Shown: one piece after another, positions 21,413 through 60,894 of the stretch
Numbering within the stretch: position 1 is the stretch's first letter
Layout of the letters: each line of letters begins with the position of its first letter
DNA from: Escherichia coli
GTDB taxonomy: Bacteria > Pseudomonadota > Gammaproteobacteria > Enterobacterales > Enterobacteriaceae
Direction: 5' to 3' (one strand)
DNA: 64,000 nt
Assembly: GCF_003018255.1 (NCBI RefSeq)
Contig: NZ_CP027440.1
The notes under the pieces: model-generated
What the model was told of the DNA's origin: nothing
Database searches by the model: none
What the model saw: only the letters and a program-made list of their open reading frames with translations
Translations under genes and position numbers: made by a program

Positions 21413-21508
21413 CCAGGATAATTAGCGAATATCTCAATGCCAGGGGCGTGGCGAGGTGCAAGAGTGTGTATTACGTTTAAATCACATTATCTTGCAAAGG
21501 GATTGGTT

Positions 21509-21931
21509 ATGAACTCACTACGTTATTTTGATTTTGGTGCTGCACGCCCCGTTTTGTTATTAATTGCCCGTATCGCCGTGGTCTTAATTTTCATTATTTT
21601 TGGTTTTCCCAAAATGATGGGCTTTGACGGTACGGTCCAATATATGGCCTCGCTGGGCGCGCCGATGCCGATGCTGGCAGCGATTATTGCGGTAGTTATG
21701 GAAGTGCCCGCCGCGATATTAATCGTGCTTGGCTTTTTCACCCGTCCGCTGGCGGTGCTGTTTATTTTCTACACGCTGGGTACGGCGGTGATTGGTCACC
21801 ATTACTGGGATATGACCGGCGATGCGGTTGGGCCAAATATGATTAATTTCTGGAAGAATGTCAGTATCGCTGGCGCATTCCTGCTGTTGGCAATTACCGG
21901 GCCGGGGGCGATTTCTCTCGATCGGCGTTAG
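21509..21931 (+). CDS. yphA: DoxX-family inner membrane protein
   Basis: ORF track 21437..21931; start moved to ATG 21509 ([18 protein letters not shown]...), 140 aa, very hydrophobic. Confidence 0.85.
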
Positions 21932-22079: not shown

Positions 22080-22952
22080 TTACAGTAACGCAACCCGCAA
22101 CGACATCTCTGAAGTTGTTGATTCCCCTGGTGCAAGCGCAATGAGGTCACCACCTTCCGGGCGATGATGGTCATCTGGCGCATGGCTCATCGGTTCCAGA
22201 CAGAAGAAATCAAACGCATATCCTTTATCAAACGCCGGGTCGGAAACAAAGATGAAATAACACGGTGCAGGTGGCGTCGTTTCTATGATGATGGCATAAC
22301 CCTCCTGCGGCTGCTCGATGCGGGCCTGACCATTCCATCCGGCAAAACCATTGTTCACCCACTGGCGCGGCAACGGCGCGAGCTGGTTAAAATCCAATTC
22401 TTGCGGTAGCTGCTCGCAAAACTCACCCGCCAGCCACTGCTCCCGCTCCAGCCAGTAACCGCTCGCCTGTGCCTGAATCCGCGTTTGCGGCGACAACGGA
22501 AAATAAGGATGCCAGCCGGTACCAAATGGCAGCGTCTCTGCCCCTTGATTGGTGACAGAGAGTGTCACCGTCAGCGTATCCGCCGTTAAATGAAACGTCT
22601 GGCTTACCCGATAGTGATAAACACCGCTGCGATGTTCATACACCAGACACAAGATATCATCATTGCGCGAGACACATTGCCACTGCCCCAGCCAGCCGTC
22701 GCCGTGCAGATAGTGCGCATCCCACTCAACATTCGGTTGCAGTTGATACTCACGCCCCTGCCAGACAAAACGGTTGCCGCTCACCCGGTTTGCAAATGGC
22801 ACCAGCGGAAAACAAGAGGCATCGGTTGCCACACCGTTTTTTTTACCAGGACGTAAGAGCGGCGTCGTATCGCGCCAGAAGCCTTCGATTACGCCGCCCT
22901 GGTCAGAAACGCCCAGCTTTAGCGACCCGTGGGATAAGGTATAGATGGTCAT
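22080..22952 (-). CDS. yphB: aldose 1-epimerase (mutarotase) family protein
   Basis: ORF track, 290 aa, MTIYTLSHGSLKLGVSDQGGVIEGFW... Confidence 0.9.
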   Translation of the reverse strand: MTIYTLSHGSLKLGVSDQGGVIEGFWRDTTPLLRPGKKNGVATDASCFPLVPFANRVSGNRFVWQGREYQLQPNVEWDAHYLHGDGWLGQWQCVSRNDDILCLVYEHRSGVYHYRVSQTFHLTADTLTVTLSVTNQGAETLPFGTGWHPYFPLSPQTRIQAQASGYWLEREQWLAGEFCEQLPQELDFNQLAPLPRQWVNNGFAGWNGQARIEQPQEGYAIIIETTPPAPCYFIFVSDPAFDKGYAFDFFCLEPMSHAPDDHHRPEGGDLIALAPGESTTSEMSLRVALL

Positions 22953-22963
22953 CCGCTAACTCC

Positions 22964-24025
22964 TTAATCCGGGAAGTTAATCACAACTTTCCCGCATTTG
23001 CCGCTTGCCATCAGTGCATAAGCATCTCCCGCCTGTTCCAGCGAGAAGCGGTGGGTAATGGCGTTACGCGGCCACAGTTTCCAGTCCGTTAAATCGTGGG
23101 CGCATTTTTCCATATGGAACAGACTGGTCACCCAGGAGCCGATAATCCGCCGTTGATGGTGCATCAGGTCGGCGCTAACCTCGAACTCGACTTTTCCGGT
23201 TTCACCAATGTAAACCACGCGTCCCCAGTCAGCGGTGGATTGCAGTGCCAGTAAGCGACCTGCGGCATTACCGGAACAATCAAGCGCAACATCCGCGCCG
23301 CCGTGAGTGAGTTCGGCGATTATCTGCGGCAGACCTTCGGTGGTCGCTAAATAGCCGTGATCCATCACTCCTAACTGTTTCGCCATCGCCAGACGTTCCG
23401 GCAGCATATCAACGCCGATGATCCTTTTTGCACCGCGACCTTTCGCCAGCATCATCGCCATCATGCCGACCGGCCCCAGACCGACCACCAGTACGTTATC
23501 ACTGCCGGAAACTTCGCCGCGCAAAATCCCTTCATACGCTGTACCAACGCCGCAACTGATAAACGCACCATCTTCGTAACTCAGTGCATCCGGCAGGAGG
23601 ATCAGATCTTTTTCTTCCGCCAGCAGATATTCGGCATGACCGCCGTCACGCTGCCAGCCGTAAGCCGCTTTTCCTTCGCCAGTACAAGAGATAGGAAAGC
23701 CGCGACGGCAGTTCGGGCAAAAACCACAGCCAGAAATGTGATACACCAGCACACGGTCGCCCTCTTTAAAATGGCGGCAGCCTTGCCCCATCGCCACAAT
23801 CTGCCCGCACGGTTCATGACCGTTGATAAATCCCTGGTATAACGGTTTATCGGGTGCCGCTGCCGTGGCACGGTGTTGATGATAGATATAGTGGACATCG
23901 CTTCCGCAAATCCCGGAGGATTTCATTTTGATCAGTACCTGGTTAATCCCCGGCGTCGGCACCGCAACTTCCCGCAGATCGACGGTCGAATTTCCTGGTA
24001 AATAAGCTGCCAGCATCGTTTTCAT
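22964..24025 (-). CDS. yphC: Zn-dependent alcohol/polyol dehydrogenase (MDR family)
   Basis: ORF track 22964..24058; start moved to MKTMLAAYLPGN..., 353 aa; GICGSDVH zinc motif, GHEPCG and VVGLGPVG Rossmann motif. Confidence 0.9.
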   Translation of the reverse strand: MKTMLAAYLPGNSTVDLREVAVPTPGINQVLIKMKSSGICGSDVHYIYHQHRATAAAPDKPLYQGFINGHEPCGQIVAMGQGCRHFKEGDRVLVYHISGCGFCPNCRRGFPISCTGEGKAAYGWQRDGGHAEYLLAEEKDLILLPDALSYEDGAFISCGVGTAYEGILRGEVSGSDNVLVVGLGPVGMMAMMLAKGRGAKRIIGVDMLPERLAMAKQLGVMDHGYLATTEGLPQIIAELTHGGADVALDCSGNAAGRLLALQSTADWGRVVYIGETGKVEFEVSADLMHHQRRIIGSWVTSLFHMEKCAHDLTDWKLWPRNAITHRFSLEQAGDAYALMASGKCGKVVINFPD

Positions 24026-24090
24026 AAATCCCTCATTAACAATACGATTAATTTTCATCCCTGCCGCACCCGCGCCAGGGGCGTTAAGGT

Positions 24091-25089
24091 TTAGCGTTTC
24101 GCTTTACTGCTACGCTGAGTCAGCAAGATATTCGCCAGCACCGCCACCACGATGATGACGCCGCGCACCACCTGCTGGAAAAAGGAGTTAATCCCGAGCA
24201 GCACCAGACCGTTACCGATTAGCGTAATCACCAGTACGCCAAGCAGCGTACCGAACAACGAGCCGCGACCACCGGAAAGCGCCGTACCGCCAACCACGAC
24301 CGCGGCGATGACGTCAAACTCCAGACCGTTTGCGGCACCTGCGTTACCGGAACCGAGGCGCGCCGCCAACAAAATGCCGGTCACCGCCGCTAATAATCCC
24401 GAAAGGGTAAAGATAAGAATGCGTACCCGACGAACGTTAATACCGCACAACTGTGCTGCAGTGGCATTACCGCCAACGGCAAAAACCGAGCGCCCGAAGG
24501 CGGTTTTGCGGCTGATGAACACAAACAGCGCAAACAATACCATCATGATCAGCGCGGATACCGGCACACCGAGAAATTGTCCCCCCAGCCAGTCCAGCAC
24601 TTCGTTTTCATCAATCGGCACTGGCAAGGCGTTGGTCATAAACAGCCCCATTCCGCGCAGGGCGCTCCATAAACCCAGCGTGGCAACAAAACTTGGCACG
24701 TTAAACACGCCGCGCAGCACCCCGGCGAGCGTTCCCATCAGCGCGCCTAACAGCAACACCAGCAGACACGCCACCGCCAGCGGAACTTCAAATTGCAGCA
24801 AAAATGCCAGGCACACCGAGACAAAAGCCACCATCGGACCAACGCTGACATCAATTTCACCGGAGATAATAATCAGCGTCATCGCCCATGCGGCGATCCC
24901 GATGGTGGCGGCATCGCGCAGCACGTTCATCTGGTTATTCAATGAGATAAAGCCAGGCGCGTTCAGAGAGAAGACCAGATAAAGAATGGCGATCACCACC
25001 AGCAAACCGATCTCATTAATATGGCGACTGACAAATTGTTTGAGCGAGACGCTCTTGCCCTGCGGCAATAGTAATGACGAAGCAGACAT
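24091..25089 (-). CDS. yphD: sugar ABC transporter permease (RbsC/AraH-like)
   Basis: ORF track, 332 aa, polytopic membrane protein. Confidence 0.9.
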   Translation of the reverse strand: MSASSLLLPQGKSVSLKQFVSRHINEIGLLVVIAILYLVFSLNAPGFISLNNQMNVLRDAATIGIAAWAMTLIIISGEIDVSVGPMVAFVSVCLAFLLQFEVPLAVACLLVLLLGALMGTLAGVLRGVFNVPSFVATLGLWSALRGMGLFMTNALPVPIDENEVLDWLGGQFLGVPVSALIMMVLFALFVFISRKTAFGRSVFAVGGNATAAQLCGINVRRVRILIFTLSGLLAAVTGILLAARLGSGNAGAANGLEFDVIAAVVVGGTALSGGRGSLFGTLLGVLVITLIGNGLVLLGINSFFQQVVRGVIIVVAVLANILLTQRSSKAKR

Positions 25090-25113
25090 CTTCAGGTTCC
25101 TCGGTAAAATTCA

Positions 25114-26625
25114 TCAGTGCACAGACAGAATGGCGGACATCAGCTCATCCACATTGACCGGAGCGTGAAACTCCTGCGAGAACGTACCGTGCTGTAACAA
25201 CAGAATGCGGTCGCACACCAGCGGCAACTCCTCCACTTCACTGGAGATAAACACCACGCTTTTTCCTTCGGCAGCCAGCTCGCGGACAATACGGTAAATC
25301 TGCTGTTTGGCTTCGATATCGACGCCACGCGTTGGCTCGTCGAGCAACAAAATCTGGCTGGCGGCATAGACCCAACGACCGATCACCACTTTTTGCTGAT
25401 TGCCGCCAGAAAGCGTGCCGATGGGCGTTTCGCTACTGGCGGCCTTGACCGTCATCCGCTGCATCACCTCTTCGGTCAGGCGGCGGATGGTGGACCATTG
25501 CAGCACACCGTTGGCGCTGATTTTTTGCCGATTGGTCAGCACTGTATTTTCGTCAACGCCCAGCCAGGGAATGATCCCCGCATCTTTGCGGTTTTCTGGC
25601 GTATAGCCAATGCCGCGTTTCAGCATGTCGCCGTAATCGGGGCGAGTGATTTTCTCGCCGTTGATAACAATTTCGCCCTGTTCATACGTCTCCAGCCCAA
25701 CTATGGCTTTCAACAATTCACTGCGCCCTGCCCCCAGCAGGCCAGCAATGCCGAGTACTTCGCCACGACGGAGCGTAAAGCTGATATCCTCCAGCTTGGG
25801 CTTATGGCGTAACGCACGGACTTCCAGCACGGCCTGATCGACAATTTCCTGAGGGGAAACCGGCGCAATATCAACGTGATCGCGCCCGAGCATTAGCGAC
25901 ACAATATGATGCGTGGAGGTGTTTTCGAGCATCACATCGCCCGCCACCTGACCATCGCGCATAACGGTGGCACAGGAGGCAATGCGGCGAATTTCTTCCA
26001 TCCGGTGGCTGACATAAATCACCGCCACGCCCAGTGCCGACATCTTTTTCACCGCGCTGATCACCAGTTCAACCTCCGCACTGGCAAGCGAGCTGGTGGG
26101 TTCATCAAGAATGACCACGCGCGGCTCGCCCTTCATCACCCGCGCAATTTCCACCAGCTGCTTTTGCGCCGGGCTTAGTGTTGAAACAAGTTGTTCAGGA
26201 CTAACGTCAACGCCCAACGCCTGCAAGCAACGTTGGGCGTCCTGCGCCATTTGCAGGTAATCAATCATGCCGTTGCGGCGGGGCCACTGACCGAGGCAGA
26301 GGTTTTCCGCCACTGTCAGCCCTTCCACCAGACTTAACTCCTGATAAACCGCGCGTACCCCCAGTTCAGCGGCACGGCGAGTCAGCGTAGCTTCGTCACC
26401 TTCCAGTCGCGTCTCGCCAATCCAGATATCACCGCTATCCGGACGTTCGCTACCGGTAAGCATTCGAATGAGGGTCGATTTTCCCGCACCGTTTTTGCCT
26501 AACAGCGCACGAACTTCGCCTTTATTGAGCGTGAAGTTAACGTTATCCAGCGCAACGACGCCGGGATAACGCTTATTTCCTGCCACCACTTTTGCTACCG
26601 GGACTGCCTCTGTTGCTGTGAACAT
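25114..26625 (-). CDS. yphE: sugar ABC transporter ATPase with tandem nucleotide-binding domains
   Basis: ORF track, 503 aa; Walker A GKNGAGKST, second Walker A-like GLLGAGRSEL, signature LSGGNQQK. Confidence 0.92.
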   Translation of the reverse strand: MFTATEAVPVAKVVAGNKRYPGVVALDNVNFTLNKGEVRALLGKNGAGKSTLIRMLTGSERPDSGDIWIGETRLEGDEATLTRRAAELGVRAVYQELSLVEGLTVAENLCLGQWPRRNGMIDYLQMAQDAQRCLQALGVDVSPEQLVSTLSPAQKQLVEIARVMKGEPRVVILDEPTSSLASAEVELVISAVKKMSALGVAVIYVSHRMEEIRRIASCATVMRDGQVAGDVMLENTSTHHIVSLMLGRDHVDIAPVSPQEIVDQAVLEVRALRHKPKLEDISFTLRRGEVLGIAGLLGAGRSELLKAIVGLETYEQGEIVINGEKITRPDYGDMLKRGIGYTPENRKDAGIIPWLGVDENTVLTNRQKISANGVLQWSTIRRLTEEVMQRMTVKAASSETPIGTLSGGNQQKVVIGRWVYAASQILLLDEPTRGVDIEAKQQIYRIVRELAAEGKSVVFISSEVEELPLVCDRILLLQHGTFSQEFHAPVNVDELMSAILSVH

Positions 26626-26647
26626 AGGGACCTCTGCGAATCAGCGA

Positions 26648-27631
26648 TTAGGGCAGACCATCAACGTGCGTTGCCAGCCACTGTTTACCGTCTTCCGTTT
26701 TGGTATAGAGATCGATTGGCACCTGAATCACTTTTTCACCGTCGGCTTGTTTATTGATAACCTTCAAAGTTTGCGCGAAAACAGCATTGCCCATTTTCTT
26801 ACCGGAAATATCCACCACCGCTTTCAGCACCTGATTGTTTTCCAGCTCCTGAGCAATTTCAGTGGTCATATCCGAACCGAAAACAGCAATTTTTCCGGCC
26901 TGATTTTGATTACGTACCGCTTTTACCGCGCCGAGTGTCGCACCGCCCGATTCCCCCATAATGGCGTTGAGATCCGGCGTGGAGATAATTAGTTTTTCAC
27001 CAACGGAAATCGCTTTATCTAAAACAGTCCCTTCCTGATTAGCGACTATTTGCGCGCCGGGAACGCGGGATTTTAATACCTCTTCAAATCCTTTACGTCG
27101 CTGCACACAAACTTCAAAGGCTTCGCAATTGATGACGGCAATTTTCGGCTGGTCAATTTTATTGGCAATAAAATAATCGGCGGCAGCGTTACCCAGTTTT
27201 TTACCAAATTCCAGCGGATCGCCGACCAGATACGCCGAGACATATTTATCGACACCTTTTTGATTAATACAGGTGTTGTAGCAAATCACCGGAATACCCG
27301 CTTCACTGGCGCGACGAACGGTACGACTACTGCCATTTTCAGACACTGCCGATAAAATAATGGCATCGACATTACGCGCCACGAGGGTATCAACAAAGGT
27401 ACTTTCTTTCGAAATATCGCCCTGAGCGTTAGTTTCAATTAACTGTACCTGTACTGAAGAATCTTTTGCCGCATCCTGAACGCCCTGACGCACTCCGGCG
27501 TAATATCCCTGGGTATCAAGGTATATTGCGCCAATAGTCATTTCTTTATCCGCAGCCCTGGCAAATAGTGCGCTACCCAATAGCGTAGCCATTAATAATA
27601 AATTACGGGTTCTTGTCATTTTTTTAGGCAT
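26648..27631 (-). CDS. yphF: periplasmic sugar-binding protein of an ABC transporter
   Basis: ORF track, 327 aa; N-terminal signal peptide MPKKMTRTRNLLLMATLLGSALFARA. Confidence 0.9.
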   Translation of the reverse strand: MPKKMTRTRNLLLMATLLGSALFARAADKEMTIGAIYLDTQGYYAGVRQGVQDAAKDSSVQVQLIETNAQGDISKESTFVDTLVARNVDAIILSAVSENGSSRTVRRASEAGIPVICYNTCINQKGVDKYVSAYLVGDPLEFGKKLGNAAADYFIANKIDQPKIAVINCEAFEVCVQRRKGFEEVLKSRVPGAQIVANQEGTVLDKAISVGEKLIISTPDLNAIMGESGGATLGAVKAVRNQNQAGKIAVFGSDMTTEIAQELENNQVLKAVVDISGKKMGNAVFAQTLKVINKQADGEKVIQVPIDLYTKTEDGKQWLATHVDGLP

Positions 27632-27727
27632 AGTGCCTCCTGTAGGGTTTTTATTTACAACGGCTTATTTTAATTATTTGAGCGTGAGCGGCAGCGCGTG
27701 CCGCTCAAATATTACAGTTAATAAGGT

Positions 27728-30700
27728 TTAGTGAACGTAGCTAAAAATAAAAGGCATCACGGTGGTGAATAATGCCGCTTTCGGCCAGGCTGGATTAATC
27801 GCCATCAATTCAGCGCGAGCAGATTCATAGTGCGCAACCTCCCCGAGTCCCGCGGACGCCAGCATCGCCACCATCAGGCATTTTTCTTTATGCTGCTGTT
27901 GTAAATCGCCATACAGCGACAACAGGTCAGGTTGTGAAACAGCAAAGAAATCCGCCTCGATACTGGTTTTCGCCATCTCTTGCGCCCACTGTTTCATTTC
28001 ACTAAACAGTTGCTGTGCGGTGTGTTGTTCGCCCAGCAGTCGCAGCGCCATTCCTTGCCAGAAGAGATAATCAACCGGCTGATCGTTGTAATAACTGTGA
28101 ATGTTAATGGTGCGATCGCCAGTCGCCGCCAGACGTAAACAACGCGTCGCTTCAGTTTCATCGCCCTGCGCGTTGGCGCATATCGCCTGCCAGAACCAGA
28201 TGTCGTTGTCAGTTTGCCCCGGTAAACGGCCTTCGCTTAAATTCTCCGGATAATGCAACGCGGCATGAAGCAGTTCGCTGGCCTGCTGCGGCTCTCTGGC
28301 ATCAAGATGCTGCCAGGCGCGTAATAACTGGTTGAGGATAAACTGACTGGTGATCTTCCCTTCCCCGCCTTCCCACGGGTGGAATTTGCGCGTGGCGAGA
28401 ATGTCCGCCGCTTTGTCTGCCTGACCCGTGAGATGCCACAAATTGAGCAGTTCTGCGGTCATGTCGTCGCGTTTCAGCGCAATTTCCAGATTATTTTCCA
28501 GACGCGCCAGTCGTTTCTCCGGTGTGACACCGCTTAACTTATCCAGCAAATCCCGTTCGAAAAGCAGACGTGCATCCTGCGGCGCAAGCTGATAAGCATT
28601 ATCAAGATAACGCGCGGCCAGCTCATAATCGTGTTGCTTATTCCACGCATGGATCGCTAACCCGCGCCAGCCGTCGGCAAACTCCGGCGACATCTCTACG
28701 CAACGTTGCCATAAAGTAATGGCTTTGTTGTAGCTGCACTTGTTGTAGTAGAAGCAGGCCAGTAAATGACGGGCAAACCAGCACTCTTCAATACTCTCCA
28801 GCGCCGCCACTTCTTCCAGCGTATTCGGGAAACGGACAAACTGTGGGAAGACATCAATGGCTTTTGTGACCAGTTCGCCGCGTTCAGCTTTCGGCAGCAA
28901 GCTGGCTTGCAAGTAAAGCGGCAGCGTGCGCTGGCAGTCCAGTGCGTTCAGCATCTCTGCCGCCAGGGTGGGCATTCCCCAGTTAATCAGTTGCCCGGCG
29001 GTCATCAGGGCGTTAACGTCGCGTCCCTGACACAGACCGCGCCACTGCGCGAGGGCTGATTCGCTACGACCATCGAACCAGTTCAGCCACCACAGAGTGG
29101 CGTTCAGCGGATAATCACGCAGCAGTTTCTCGCGCTGCAAACGCGCGTTGTCCTGACGACCACTTAACACCAGCAGCAGATTATGCAGGCAAAGCACTTC
29201 CTGATTGGTTGGGCAGGCGCGAAGACTTTGTTGGCAAAAATCCAGACCAGCGTCGAAGTGACCATTACGCGCCGCCAGCCGTGCCAGACCATAATAGCCA
29301 CCTGCTTTACTGTTGCCGCTCCAGACCGCCCGCCAGAAATCCTCTTCGGCTTGTTGATATTGCCCCTGACGTTCGTAAGCACTGGCGCGAATCAAACTCG
29401 CCTGTCCGCACTGCGGATTTTTGTTTAGCGCATGTGCGCGTTTCAGCGCCTGAGTGGCATACGCCACCGCTTGCGGGAAATCTGCTCGGTTATATTCCAG
29501 CATCGCCAGCGCCAGGTTACAGCGATAATCCAGCGGATCCAGCGCCACGCCGCGCAGGTAGTAATCGAACGGTGAACGGCTGGCGTGATGATATTGCTCC
29601 AGATGCTGACCGATAAACCAGGCTTCATCTGTACTGGTAATGTCTTGTGCTGCCAGTGGCGCTTTGGCGACGTCCGGCAACGGCAACTCTTGCGGCTGAT
29701 GTTCCTGATAACTCAGTGTGATATTGCCGTCGGCATCGGAGAGTTCAATGGTCAGCCTTTCAGGATTGATACCGTGCAACACGCCCTGGATGGCGGTCGC
29801 TGGTGTCAGGGCCACGGCATCATCGAGCAACGCGTTGCATTTGCCGATTTCGCGGATCGCCAGACGGTATCCTTTCAACGGAGAGATGGCATACAGCCCC
29901 CACTCAATCCCCCGCTCGCTACGCTGGAGTTTAATCACCGCATCGCGGGAGGCGTTTTGCACCATGCCCAAAGAATGGTAAGGCAGGAAATACTGCTCAA
30001 AACGCTTCTCTTCGTAAGCATCAAGCCAGGTAAAATCGGGCTGGTTATCGGCAAAAATACCAGTCATCAGTTCGATATACGGGCCGTTATTGTCGGTCAG
30101 ACTCTTATCCCACGCCTGGCCAAATTCACTGTGTCCCCAGCTCCACTGTTTTTTACCTGGCGCAATATGGTGGTTGGCAACGTGCAGCAAACCGCCATCT
30201 TCATCGTGACACCACGCGCCAACAAAATCGTACTGTGATTTTTCAGCCATATATGAGGTTGGAACGGGCACATTTTTATAGCGAGAAATGTCCACTCCGG
30301 CGGAGTAGTCCACTTTGTAGTAAGTGCCGGTGGCGATGGGGAAAGCGGAGACGGCCCGTTTGCCGTGATCAAACACCGCCGTTACATCCGGCGGGAAGAC
30401 GCTCTGATGCCCTTCACCCCCTTTCACTGCCGGGTTGGCCCACCACAAGAAATGACGCGGCGTGGCGTTGCCGTTATAGACGCGGCTGGCAATTTCCAGT
30501 GCCGCCCGGTCAGGGCGCAGGGTGAAACCTGTCATCACCTGTAAACCGTGCATCGGCTCCGTTTCGCCGACCCACACGGTTTGTGCGCCGTCTTCATGGG
30601 CTTCGAGGGTGAAATCGACGGGCATAAAGGTGGTCGGGCGATGGTGTTGCGGCCAGTTAAACTCAATCCCGCCGGAGATCCACGGCCCCAGCAACCCCAC

Positions 30701-31009
30701 CAGCGCCGGTTTAATGACTTCATTATGATAGACAAAATCGCGCTGTTTCACTTTATCCCACGCGCGATGCACCCGACCGCCCAGCTCCGGCAGGATCATC
30801 ACTTTGATGTAGTCGTTTTCCAGCCACACCGCCTGCCAGGATTTCAGGGTTTTCTGCTCGCTCAGCGTATCGGTCACGCCGTAGGGATAAACCGCGCCGG
30901 ACGATCCCTGATAAACGCGATTTTCCAGGAACATGGGATGTATATCCTGCGGCCCGGTTTCATAGGTCGGGATCTCAACGCGCTCTTGCCACACTTTTAC
31001 TGGAGTCAT
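27728..31009 (-). CDS. yphG: large conserved protein of unknown function: N-terminal domain plus TPR-like helical repeats
   Basis: ORF track 27728..31102; start moved to ATG at 31007-31009 (MTPVKVWQERVEIPTYE...) behind a GAGG Shine-Dalgarno, 1093 aa. No obvious signal peptide. The C-terminal two thirds look like helical TPR repeats by composition; this is an impression, not a domain search. Confidence 0.88.
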   Translation of the reverse strand: MTPVKVWQERVEIPTYETGPQDIHPMFLENRVYQGSSGAVYPYGVTDTLSEQKTLKSWQAVWLENDYIKVMILPELGGRVHRAWDKVKQRDFVYHNEVIKPALVGLLGPWISGGIEFNWPQHHRPTTFMPVDFTLEAHEDGAQTVWVGETEPMHGLQVMTGFTLRPDRAALEIASRVYNGNATPRHFLWWANPAVKGGEGHQSVFPPDVTAVFDHGKRAVSAFPIATGTYYKVDYSAGVDISRYKNVPVPTSYMAEKSQYDFVGAWCHDEDGGLLHVANHHIAPGKKQWSWGHSEFGQAWDKSLTDNNGPYIELMTGIFADNQPDFTWLDAYEEKRFEQYFLPYHSLGMVQNASRDAVIKLQRSERGIEWGLYAISPLKGYRLAIREIGKCNALLDDAVALTPATAIQGVLHGINPERLTIELSDADGNITLSYQEHQPQELPLPDVAKAPLAAQDITSTDEAWFIGQHLEQYHHASRSPFDYYLRGVALDPLDYRCNLALAMLEYNRADFPQAVAYATQALKRAHALNKNPQCGQASLIRASAYERQGQYQQAEEDFWRAVWSGNSKAGGYYGLARLAARNGHFDAGLDFCQQSLRACPTNQEVLCLHNLLLVLSGRQDNARLQREKLLRDYPLNATLWWLNWFDGRSESALAQWRGLCQGRDVNALMTAGQLINWGMPTLAAEMLNALDCQRTLPLYLQASLLPKAERGELVTKAIDVFPQFVRFPNTLEEVAALESIEECWFARHLLACFYYNKCSYNKAITLWQRCVEMSPEFADGWRGLAIHAWNKQHDYELAARYLDNAYQLAPQDARLLFERDLLDKLSGVTPEKRLARLENNLEIALKRDDMTAELLNLWHLTGQADKAADILATRKFHPWEGGEGKITSQFILNQLLRAWQHLDAREPQQASELLHAALHYPENLSEGRLPGQTDNDIWFWQAICANAQGDETEATRCLRLAATGDRTINIHSYYNDQPVDYLFWQGMALRLLGEQHTAQQLFSEMKQWAQEMAKTSIEADFFAVSQPDLLSLYGDLQQQHKEKCLMVAMLASAGLGEVAHYESARAELMAINPAWPKAALFTTVMPFIFSYVH

Positions 31010-31126
31010 GGTGCCCTCAATATTAACAAGACATACTGAATTAAAAGATTTGTGGCAGTGTATTGAACAATCTGGCAATGTTTTCGCGGAATAATCACGC
31101 AATTAACTAAACAAGGTTTAGTGAAG

Positions 31127-32320
31127 ATGAGAGCCTGCATTAATAATCAACAGATTCGCCACCATAACAAATGCGTGATTCTGGAACTGCTGTACCGGCA
31201 AAAGCGCGCCAATAAATCAACGCTGGCCCGGCTGGCGCAAATTTCGATTCCGGCGGTCAGTAATATTTTGCAGGAACTGGAAAGCGAAAAACGGGTGGTG
31301 AATATCGACGATGAAAGCCAGACGCGCGGGCATAGTAGCGGTACATGGCTGATTGCGCCGGAAGGTGACTGGACGTTGTGCCTGAACGTGACGCCCACCA
31401 GTATTGAGTGTCAGGTTGCTAATGCTTGTTTAAGTCCGAAAGGTGAATTTGAGTATTTACAGATTGATGCACCGACGCCGCAGGCGCTGCTGTCCGAAAT
31501 CGAAAAATGCTGGCATCGCCACCGTAAATTGTGGCCGGACCGTACCATCAACCTGGCGCTGGCAATCCACGGTCAGGTTGATCCGGTGACCGGCGTGTCG
31601 CAAACCATGCCGCAAGCGCCGTGGACAACGCCGGTTGAGGTAAAGTATCTGCTGGAAGAGAAGCTCGGCATTCGGGTGATGGTCGATAATGACTGCGTGA
31701 TGCTGGCGCTGGCGGAGAAATGGCAAAATAATTCGCAGGAACGGGATTTCTGCGTGATCAACGTTGATTACGGCATTGGCTCGTCGTTCGTGATTAACGA
31801 GCAAATTTATCGCGGCTGTTTGTATGGTAGCGGACAGATTGGTCACACCATCGTTAATCCGGATGGCGTCGTCTGCGACTGTGGACGTTACGGCTGCCTG
31901 GAAACCGTCGCCTCGTTAAGTGCATTAAAAAAACAGGCGCGGGTATGGCTAAAATCACAACCGGTTAATACTCAGCTTGATCCTGAAAAACTGACAACAG
32001 CGCAGTTAATCGCTGCCTGGCAGAGTGGAGAACCGTGGATCACCAGCTGGGTTGATCGCTCTGCCAATGCCATTGGTTTGAGTCTGTATAACTTCCTCAA
32101 CATCCTCAATATTAATCAGATTTGGTTGTACGGTCGCAGTTGTGCCTTTGGTGAGCACTGGCTTAATACCATTATTCGCCAGACGGGATTTAACCCGTTC
32201 GACCGCGACGAAGGACCGAGCGTGAAAGCGACGAAAATTGGCTTTGGGCAATTAAGCCGCGCACAACAGGTGCTGGGGATTGGCTATTTGTATGTTGAGG
32301 CGCAGTTACGACAGATTTGA
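31127..32320 (+). CDS. yphH: ROK/NagC-family transcriptional regulator
   Basis: ORF track 31121..32320 starts at a GTG; ATG at 31127 preferred (MRACINNQQIRHHNKCVILELL...), 397 aa; N-terminal HTH; ROK zinc motif CDCGRYGCLE. Confidence 0.88.
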   Translation: MRACINNQQIRHHNKCVILELLYRQKRANKSTLARLAQISIPAVSNILQELESEKRVVNIDDESQTRGHSSGTWLIAPEGDWTLCLNVTPTSIECQVANACLSPKGEFEYLQIDAPTPQALLSEIEKCWHRHRKLWPDRTINLALAIHGQVDPVTGVSQTMPQAPWTTPVEVKYLLEEKLGIRVMVDNDCVMLALAEKWQNNSQERDFCVINVDYGIGSSFVINEQIYRGCLYGSGQIGHTIVNPDGVVCDCGRYGCLETVASLSALKKQARVWLKSQPVNTQLDPEKLTTAQLIAAWQSGEPWITSWVDRSANAIGLSLYNFLNILNINQIWLYGRSCAFGEHWLNTIIRQTGFNPFDRDEGPSVKATKIGFGQLSRAQQVLGIGYLYVEAQLRQI

Positions 32321-58252: not shown

Positions 58253-58525
58253 GTAACGCATCTGTTTTTGTTTGTCATGCTGTAGACGGATCATTATCTA
58301 TCATTATAAGTCTACAGAATCTGAACATCGCATTATCTGTGTAGAAATGCCCATTTAACTGCCTGAAGAGTAACCCAACGGCCTTTTTATTTCACCACCT
58401 AATCCTCCACCAGCCAGTAACTTCTCTTTTTCTCGCCGCCCTGAGTCAGCGTGTTTAGTCACTGTAACAAATATTAAAATAGCAGGTGTTTAATCGCACA
58501 ACATGATGCTATGCTGACCAAACCA

Positions 58526-60894
<2,369 letters not shown>

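Follow-up and report, generated by a model that had tools for sequence, protein, structure and literature searches.

The yph genes (yphBCDEFG and the divergent gene yphH) are among the few large, universally conserved operons of Escherichia coli that are still without a function. We have studied them in a stretch of 64,000 nucleotides from contig NZ_CP027440.1 of the E. coli genome assembly GCF_003018255.1, referred to below as the window, and interpret the locus as a YphH-controlled operon for the uptake and cytoplasmic conversion of a monosaccharide-size carbohydrate of galacto configuration. We put the probability of this reading at roughly 0.4, and the best reading of the substrate class would be a D-galactose-like sugar or a close derivative or alditol thereof. 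A substrate of monosaccharide size is suggested because YphDEF form an ATP-binding cassette (ABC) importer of the CUT2 type, with matches to ribose, arabinose, allose, and galactose systems, and because a XylE-like transporter of the major facilitator superfamily (MFS) is found beside yphG. The galacto configuration is suggested by two independent gene contexts, one around yphG and the other around yphFEDCB. This interpretation builds on gene content, protein folds, conservation, gene linkage, and cellular location. The transporter, the regulator, the dehydrogenase, and YphB are unremarkable representatives of known superfamilies, and the operon as such is of a familiar sugar-utilisation kind; the unfamiliar part is YphG.

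YphG matches DUF5107 (Pfam PF17128; E-value 3.1e-55 over residues 39-324), a family without described function. In a full-length AlphaFold2 model built on 52 homologues (pLDDT 85, pTM 0.86), the N-terminal domain has the supersandwich fold of aldose 1-epimerases, and its strongest fold matches are enzymes acting on free sugars. Residues 460-1092 form ca. 34 helices that match tetratricopeptide repeat (TPR) superhelices such as those of OGT and APC subunits, i.e., an open superhelix and not the closed (alpha/alpha)6 toroid of glycosidases, and no nucleotide- or cofactor-binding domain is recognisable in the protein. The protein is conserved to an unusual degree. Between E. coli and Bacteroidota, Paenibacillus, or Clostridia, identity amounts to ca. 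40% across all 1,090 residues and ca. 55% in the N-terminal domain, with about 200 positions invariant in the homologue alignment. The invariant N-terminal motifs include GGIEFNWPQHHRP, DHGKR, and YIELMTG..DNQPDF, and the helical half contributes invariant loops outside the TPR pattern (F876-HPWEGGEGK, YP..GEG, YNDQ, and FAVSLP). A signal peptide is absent from all 79 homologues checked.

The likeness to mutarotases is one of fold. Neither GalM nor YphB nor other mutarotases gave a significant profile alignment with YphG (hhalign probabilities of 0.1-6.7%), and we found neither family-level similarity to aldose 1-epimerases nor, in a weak alignment that is only suggestive, conservation of their catalytic histidines. 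We regard YphG as probably a cytoplasmic enzyme that is derived from the mutarotase fold without being a plain mutarotase. Its family comprises at least 1,247 clusters at 50% identity (E-value up to 1e-30; 3,257 at up to 1e-10) and spans Proteobacteria, Bacteroidota (among them gut Bacteroidaceae, Parabacteroides, and Prevotella), and Firmicutes. The homologues are named "DUF5107 domain-containing protein" only, and none that has been characterised turned up in Pfam, NCBIfam, the PDB, or the literature open to searching. Besides TPR noise, a profile search of the PDB with YphG returned only entry 5CD6, and TPR proteins dominated the hits of a Foldseek search against AFDB50. As judged from these domain searches, YphG belongs to a widespread enzyme family that is uncharacterised in the sources searched.

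The gene neighbourhoods of yphG were scanned in one genome per species, which gave 80 loci in which open reading frames were called and clustered and recurrent families annotated. Almost always, yphG adjoins a monosaccharide-type transporter and a regulator, and often beta- or alpha-galactosidases, GalM, or galK. A sugar-porter MFS transporter (XylE-like and passing TIGR00879) is the neighbour in 57 of 79 loci. Gammaproteobacterial carriers (Citrobacter, Cedecea, Hafnia, Budvicia, Rahnella, Aeromonas, and Photobacterium) have a unit of yphH beside yphG, the MFS gene, and a gene for a YphB-family mutarotase; yphH adjoins yphG in 16 of the 20 loci from this class. The typical unit of Bacteroidota has an AraC-type regulator gene beside an MFS-yphG pair, together with a signal-peptide-bearing glycoside hydrolase (GH) of family GH2 resembling the exo-beta-1,4-galactosidase BT4151 (28 loci; 864 bits, below the equivalog cutoff). 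An alternative unit in the same phylum combines yphG with GalM and a GH97 retaining alpha-galactosidase, GH36, or GH27 enzyme. Firmicutes have a divergent AraC-type gene and yphG, sometimes followed by a small mutarotase-like gene, with GH2, GH35, or GH36 nearby. GH35-like and GH95-like enzymes are also found among the neighbours, and one of the Bacteroidota loci (L084) continues into galK, next to yphG. The regulators beside yphG are ROK proteins in Gammaproteobacteria and elsewhere AraC proteins with an AraC_binding cupin, whose best match is E. coli AraC.

GalM is distributed unevenly over these loci. Among the 59 non-gammaproteobacterial ones (L023-L082), it accompanies alpha-galactosidase-type genes in 8 of 15 loci, compared to 2 of 44 loci without such genes, and it occurs in none of the 27 loci with GH2 but in 10 of the 32 without; p-values for this pattern are overstated, given that the loci are related and that one counted family (fam24) has no Pfam hit. 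The pattern hints at a beta-anomer-specific consumer or a beta-anomer-specific regulator, either of which it would fit.

The second context concerns the importer and the two enzymes encoded with it. YphDEF have all components of a CUT2 importer, i.e., a substrate-binding protein (SBP) of RbsB fold, a single ATPase with two nucleotide-binding domains (NBDs), and a BPD_transp_2 permease. YphF carries a signal peptide (MPKK...FARA/AD), its PDB matches are ribose-, galactose-, and allose-binding proteins, and Peripla_BP_4 (PF13407) and PF00532 were recorded on its homologues. YphE has Walker A at residue 43, LSGG at residue 405, and a Walker B motif, and aligns end to end with AraG, XylG, AlsA, and MglA as its best matches, below the cutoff. 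The best NCBIfam matches of YphD are permeases for ribose, arabinose, and galactofuranose, all below cutoff, and RbsC and AraH can be aligned with it. PDB entry 3NRE ("aldose 1-epimerase"; E-value 1.7e-201) is YphB itself, and with the mutarotase fold and the catalytic His, His, and Glu motifs (HGDGW83, GWHPYF146, and CLEP251) the protein qualifies, by sequence, as an aldose 1-epimerase. YphC has the zinc and Rossmann motifs GICGSD49, GHE80, C111-x2-C-x2-C-x7-C125 (the Cys4 structural zinc site), and GLGPVG193, as well as 107 PDB relatives at E-values up to 1e-20. Its nearest NCBIfam and PDB families are threonine and polyol dehydrogenases, with no equivalog passed, and the acidic residue after the second strand suggests that it probably prefers NAD+.

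Homologues of YphF with 57-72% identity are encoded in operons of Serratia, Aquitalea, Rhizobium, and Agrobacterium. The ABC genes together with yphC and an E. coli-type yphB accompany yphG only in Escherichia, Enterobacter, Budvicia diplopodorum, Serratia, and one metagenomic lineage. Serratia has a ROK gene beside yphG-MFS-yphFEDCB, and the metagenomic lineage has an AraC-type gene beside yphG-yphFEDCB in the same gene order yphG-F-E-D-C-B; the MFS gene next to yphG has been lost in E. coli. Conversely, yphFED with yphB, or the whole of yphFEDCB, also exist without yphG in Rhizobium, Agrobacterium, and Aquitalea. In evolutionary terms, the yph locus is thus made up of two modules (yphG on the one hand and yphFEDCB on the other), which have been combined repeatedly. 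YphC is the most conserved protein of its module, with 83% identity to the Aquitalea homologue (L091:12576-13640) and 80% to that of Serratia, whereas YphB, YphE, and YphF are only 56-69% identical between E. coli and the betaproteobacterium Aquitalea. These values indicate that YphC is constrained to an unusual degree and that the yphFEDCB module has been transferred laterally.

In Rhizobium and Agrobacterium, the module takes the form of a GntR-type regulator gene beside genes for an SBP (57-60% identical to YphF), an ATPase, a permease, a YphB-like mutarotase (44% identical to YphB; E-value 7e-91), a GMC oxidoreductase, and a D-galactonate dehydratase that scores 724.7 bits, where the cutoff is 311. 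The dehydratase gene of Agrobacterium is followed by one for a short-chain dehydrogenase/reductase (SDR). Aquitalea has yphFEDCB tail to tail with dgoD, dgoA, an SDR, and an SGL-family lactonase, after which a second CUT2 transporter is encoded; the SDR is of the same type as that of Agrobacterium and passes a glucose-1-dehydrogenase subfamily model. These contexts point to a galacto sugar that some bacteria route to D-galactonate. In such a scheme, YphC could be an aldose 1-dehydrogenase analogous to the GMC enzyme, or it could oxidise a hexitol-type precursor upstream of a separate galactose dehydrogenase.

YphH has the architecture of a ROK repressor, with an N-terminal winged helix-turn-helix (HTH) domain, a ROK sugar-binding domain, and a Cys-rich zinc motif. 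The latter had already been read from the sequence as CxCGxxGCxE in the initial annotation and is found as CDCGRYGCLE at residues 250-259 (nucleotides 31874-31903). The best NCBIfam matches of YphH are NagC and Mlc, which align over residues 9-343 and score 110 bits against cutoffs of 530-650, and an HTH_24 hit was recorded on its homologues. An inverted-repeat search of the yphG-yphH intergenic region revealed a perfect palindrome (ACTAAAC-AAG-GTTTAGT) that overlaps the ribosome-binding and translation start region of yphH. Phylogenetic footprinting showed that the surrounding block TTCACTAAAC..GTTTACTGTATTGCGTGA is kept in 14 intergenic regions of Enterobacterales and Aeromonas, and the exact palindrome occurs once in the 64-kb window, compared to 0.1 expected occurrences. 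The block is the obvious candidate for a YphH operator, and its position over the yphH start region would imply autoregulation. Promoter scans of the locus performed no better than shuffled controls. We count the sugar-sensing ROK and AraC regulators and the conservation of the palindrome from E. coli to Aeromonas in favour of the interpretation given above. A copy of the palindrome with one mismatch (ACCAAACCATGTTTAGT) lies at 58517-58533, between rpoE and nadB and ca. 30 bp upstream of the latter. It resembles the NadR box (TGTTTA...TAAACA) and was set aside as a second YphH site, since the match is probably coincidental.

From these data, we infer an order of steps, a role for the operator, and a type of chemistry for YphG. 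YphH would probably repress both divergent promoters via the conserved palindrome until the sugar binds to the repressor. YphF would capture the sugar in the periplasm for import by YphD and YphE, YphB would interconvert the anomers of the imported sugar, and YphC, as an NAD+-type zinc dehydrogenase, would oxidise the sugar or its precursor to a product that may enter the pathways of galactose or D-galactonate, whose genes lie elsewhere in the E. coli genome. In YphG, a mutarotase-type sugar cleft would probably be completed by the invariant loops of the TPR solenoid. The protein would take the same sugar as its substrate and act on the anomeric centre or directly beside it; the likeliest reactions of the free sugar would be an isomerisation that proceeds by ring opening or a conversion specific for one anomer. 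Of the two modules, yphFED-yphC-yphB is horizontally mobile, and yphG would be the ancient core. We further propose, tentatively and with some doubt, that YphG founds a new class of carbohydrate-active enzymes in which a mutarotase-fold catalytic domain capped by TPR-solenoid loops carries out an undescribed reaction on free or minimally substituted galacto sugars. Free galactose, for instance, might be isomerised or epimerised in an anomer-specific manner, or glycosides might be hydrolysed by a new mechanism. A role of YphG as lactonase was rejected because most yphG loci encode no dehydrogenase.

Several points weigh against our interpretation. For every yph gene, it rests on sequences and models, and the yphG loci counted here are phylogenetically related rather than independent samples. 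Plain D-galactose is already served in E. coli by GalP and Mgl together with the Leloir pathway; a dedicated extra system would therefore not obviously be needed, and what is taken up may in truth be some rarer relative. YphC falls among the polyol and threonine dehydrogenases and not among known aldose 1-dehydrogenases, and the separate SDR of Aquitalea and Agrobacterium could itself be the galactose dehydrogenase, so that YphC may act on an alditol or another precursor. The best-conserved loops of YphG are the lowest-confidence regions of its model, which would be expected if their structure depends on one another or on a bound ligand. In an alignment that is weak (probability 6.7%) and suggestive only, the second catalytic His of mutarotases falls on the invariant Asn192 of YphG. 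Finally, distant DUF5107 clades are secreted and stand among glycoside hydrolase genes, which favours a glycosidase-like activity, and the divergent AraC gene with a single gene seen in Firmicutes is an arrangement typical of cytoplasmic glycosidases.

These last two observations, with GH10, GH28, GH3, and esterase genes around the secreted clades, speak for the main alternative, in which YphG, as a cytoplasmic protein, would found a new family of glycoside hydrolases, lyases, or phosphorylases and cleave an imported small galactoside, with YphB anomerising the released galactose and YphC oxidising galactose or the aglycone. We consider this rather unlikely because both types of transporter, the CUT2 ABC importer and the sugar-porter MFS, are of the monosaccharide type, and YphF homologues of 57-69% identity are encoded in operons without any hydrolase candidate. 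Moreover, the periplasmic exo-acting GH2 enzyme in the same operon of Bacteroidota suggests that a monosaccharide is imported, and the strongest fold matches of YphG act on free sugars. It is also unlikely, in our view clearly so, that a hexitol (e.g., galactitol) is imported, with YphC (or, in rhizobia, the GMC oxidoreductase) oxidising it to the sugar, YphB anomerising this product, and YphG converting the sugar further. YphC is indeed nearest to polyol and secondary-alcohol dehydrogenases (xylitol, sorbitol, and L-iditol dehydrogenases, galactitol-1-P dehydrogenase, and Tdh), both GMC and medium-chain dehydrogenase/reductase (MDR) enzymes typically oxidise alcohols, and the separate SDR of the aldose dehydrogenase type encoded with dgoD in Aquitalea and Agrobacterium leaves an upstream role for YphC or the GMC enzyme. 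Agrobacterium has known RbsB-type proteins that bind galactitol and D-altritol and are coupled to a zinc dehydrogenase. However, most yphG loci lack any dehydrogenase, the mutarotase gene directly after the permease gene in rhizobia fits an imported aldose, and our analysis of the locus found no hexitol-specific feature.

Two further alternatives concern YphG itself. Its mutarotase fold, the GH2-MFS-yphG operon with its resemblance to the logic of beta-galactosidase, permease, and mutarotase, the galK gene next to yphG in one locus, and the absence of GalM from all 27 loci with GH2 could mean that YphG is an oversized galactose (or L-arabinose) mutarotase that supplies the right anomer to galactokinase. 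This is improbable given that many yphG loci encode a canonical mutarotase (YphB, GalM, or the "mut16" family) in the same cluster and that profile-level similarity to mutarotases is absent, with one catalytic His position possibly an Asn. The ca. 630 additional conserved residues with their invariant loops would also be left unaccounted for. Alternatively, TPR solenoids usually are protein-interaction modules and the conserved loops are poorly modelled, as might be expected of a non-catalytic sugar sensor or scaffold that serves as a TPR platform to modulate the transporter or regulator. We find this very improbable because YphG partners with unrelated regulators (ROK and AraC) and unrelated transporters (MFS and ABC), and because ca. 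55% cross-phylum identity, together with the large number of Asp, Glu, and His residues that are invariant, is a typical trait of enzymes. Uptake and conversion of a galacto-configured, monosaccharide-size carbohydrate, with YphG as an enzyme acting on the same sugar, remains our preferred interpretation.

The seven genes stand at the positions and on the strands given by the initial annotation (Table 1), as borne out by the list of open reading frames and by the RefSeq annotation of a 100%-identical E. coli genome, which names them yphB, C, D, E, F, G, and yphH. The family assigned earlier to each of the seven proteins likewise agrees with the NCBIfam, PDB, and Pfam matches and with the sequence motifs. 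yphB-C-D-E-F-G form one minus-strand run of open reading frames, and yphH is divergent from yphG on the plus strand. For yphG, the mechanically called frame (27728-31102) begins at a TTG codon and would encode 1,124 residues, whereas the length of 1,093 residues reported before corresponds to the ATG at 31009. The latter is judged to be the correct start because homologues from three phyla align from residue 1-4 onwards and a GAGGG Shine-Dalgarno sequence precedes it.

Table 1. The yph genes, the two parts of YphG, and the conserved intergenic element (nucleotide positions in the window).
Feature	Position	Strand	Description
yphB	22080-22952	-	290 aa; cytoplasmic, aldose 1-epimerase (mutarotase) family
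yphC	22964-24058	-	364 aa; Zn-dependent MDR dehydrogenase, probably NAD+-linked
yphD	24091-25089	-	332 aa; CUT2-type ABC permease
yphE	25114-26625	-	503 aa; tandem-NBD sugar ABC ATPase
yphF	26648-27631	-	327 aa; periplasmic RbsB-type sugar-binding protein with signal peptide
yphG	27728-31009	-	1093 aa; cytoplasmic, DUF5107 N-terminal domain and TPR solenoid
YphG residues 460-1092	27734-29632	-	TPR solenoid of ~630 residues with invariant non-TPR loops
YphG residues 1-445	29675-31009	-	galactose-mutarotase-like fold (DUF5107)
Conserved intergenic element	31095-31126		palindrome at 31106-31122; candidate YphH operator
yphH	31127-32320	+	397 aa (RefSeq start); ROK-family transcription factor, N-terminal HTH and ROK domain

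In the RefSeq genome, the locus is flanked by hcaD/yphA on one side and glyA/hmpA on the other. The block was found in 5,425 of 5,426 complete E. coli genomes, always on the chromosome, and in 5,370 of them over at least 80% of its length. Its base composition bears no foreign-DNA signature, and with its long open reading frames and deep homologue families the locus is, as judged from sequence, not a chance pattern. At the level of individual sequences, only 3 of the 5,425 genomes match positions 22080-32320 with at least 99% identity (two of these three are human isolates from Japan, at 100%), and the remainder lie between 95% and 99%, which places the window in an E. coli lineage that has been sampled sparsely. 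In the neighbouring yphA gene (DoxX family; 21437-21931), the open reading frame in the window encodes 164 residues from its first ATG, compared to 140 in RefSeq.

The earlier view that the locus is a sugar uptake and catabolism system fits the gene content and families found here, and we have sharpened it to a monosaccharide-size, galacto-configured substrate and a two-module origin. The accompanying statement that no substrate or function had been shown also stands for NCBIfam (June 2026), Pfam, the PDB, and the openly searchable literature. All seven proteins score below the equivalog cutoffs of NCBIfam. Searches of the openly accessible full-text literature for the gene names, DUF5107, chromatin immunoprecipitation with exonuclease digestion (ChIP-exo) of YphH, and galactose returned no functional data for yph genes, and we found no published substrate or pathway there or in the 2026 databases. 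YphH is called "uncharacterized" in literature of 2014 and 2022, where it is a transcription factor of unknown function, and counts as the third uncharacterized ROK repressor in a published analysis, while a 2023 publication lists yphFED as "putative ABC transporter, sugar". In published proteomics of growth on levoglucosan, YphF rises together with MalE, XylF, UgpB, YtfQ, and MglA. We rejected this rise as evidence for the substrate because many sugar transporters are derepressed alongside, and read it as catabolite derepression. The Klebsiella literature on "yphG" was set aside, too, as it uses the gene only as a marker for the polymerase chain reaction.

Some observations on relatives of YphG stand on their own. 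Distant DUF5107-TPR clades have members with signal peptides or lipoprotein boxes (L095:10001-13390, P0280, P0284, P0329, P0338, P0348, P0366, and P0380), and one such secreted clade has genes for GH10, GH28, GH3, and carboxylesterase enzymes around it; in its wider sense, the family thus probably extends to carbohydrate-active proteins that are secreted. One metagenomic homologue (P0084; L086:5795-7918) ends after the first TPRs, where it is joined to an F5/8 type C domain. This apparent fusion was rejected as meaningful because the missing TPR half (L086:14785-16227) lies on the opposite strand ca. 7 kb off, which looks like a local inversion. Mucilaginibacter-type loci (L032, L035, L054, and L069) encode a secreted protein of 751 residues, fam24, directly upstream of the MFS-yphG pair (e.g., L032 gene 6). 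It has no Pfam or NCBIfam match and thus could not be counted as an alpha-galactosidase, but it may be an unrecognised glycoside hydrolase. In two enterobacterial assemblies (L002 and L083), yphH-yphG-MFS-yphB is split into many short open reading frames, and neighbours such as glyA are broken as well, which looks like uncorrected long-read frameshift errors rather than pseudogenes.

While the outline of the system is not surprising in itself, the analysis makes a long-standing gap in our knowledge of the best-studied bacterium directly testable. The "unknown sugar" is narrowed to a list of ligands (galactose, D-fucose, L-arabinose, galactitol, tagatose, and small galactosides), and a candidate YphH operator can be added. 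With the reaction of YphG assigned, thousands of genes would receive a name and the carbohydrate metabolism of gut and soil bacteria a further step, and the protein could define a new enzyme family on the mutarotase fold. Should it indeed represent a new enzyme class, E. coli and more than 1,000 bacterial lineages would gain a previously unrecognised entry into galactose metabolism.

Among known systems, the yph locus compares most directly to the CUT2 operons of E. coli (rbs, als, mgl, ara, xyl, ytfQRT-yjfF, and lsr), which likewise combine an RbsB-fold SBP, a tandem-NBD ATPase, and a BPD_transp_2 permease and are linked to a sugar-specific regulator and cytoplasmic sugar-converting enzymes. 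However, the yph components fall below every equivalog cutoff, the locus has no kinase gene, and the other operons lack its zinc dehydrogenase, YphB-type mutarotase, and DUF5107-TPR protein. The De Ley-Doudoroff pathway of D-galactose and D-galactonate (galactose dehydrogenase, lactonase, DgoD, the kinase DgoK, and the aldolase DgoA in sequence) is linked to the module only in Rhizobium, Agrobacterium, and Aquitalea, where homologues of yphFED with yphB or of yphFEDCB share an operon with genes such as dgoD, dgoA, and those of a lactonase and dehydrogenases, or lie next to them. In E. coli, by contrast, the yph locus has no dgo genes and only YphC as a candidate dehydrogenase, so the link is one of association and not of membership, and the pathway has no counterpart of YphG. 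The dgo operon of E. coli lies elsewhere in the genome. Compared to aldose 1-epimerases (GalM, YeaD, and YihR; PDB entries 1L7J, 3MWX, and 3NRE), YphG is fused to a conserved solenoid of ca. 630 residues and co-encoded with bona fide mutarotases. Its only solved relative is BDI_1685 of Parabacteroides distasonis (PDB 5CD6), a "TPR-domain containing protein" from structural genomics that has 580 residues, half the length of YphG, and belongs to a distant clade; it is unannotated and thus allows no transfer of function. With the ROK repressors NagC, Mlc, and XylR, finally, YphH shares the HTH, the ROK domain, the CxCGxxGCxE motif, and the divergence from its presumed target operon, but its candidate operator (ACTAAAC-N3-GTTTAGT) is unlike NagC or Mlc sites, and a published analysis places YphH on a long, separate ROK branch with an atypical linker.

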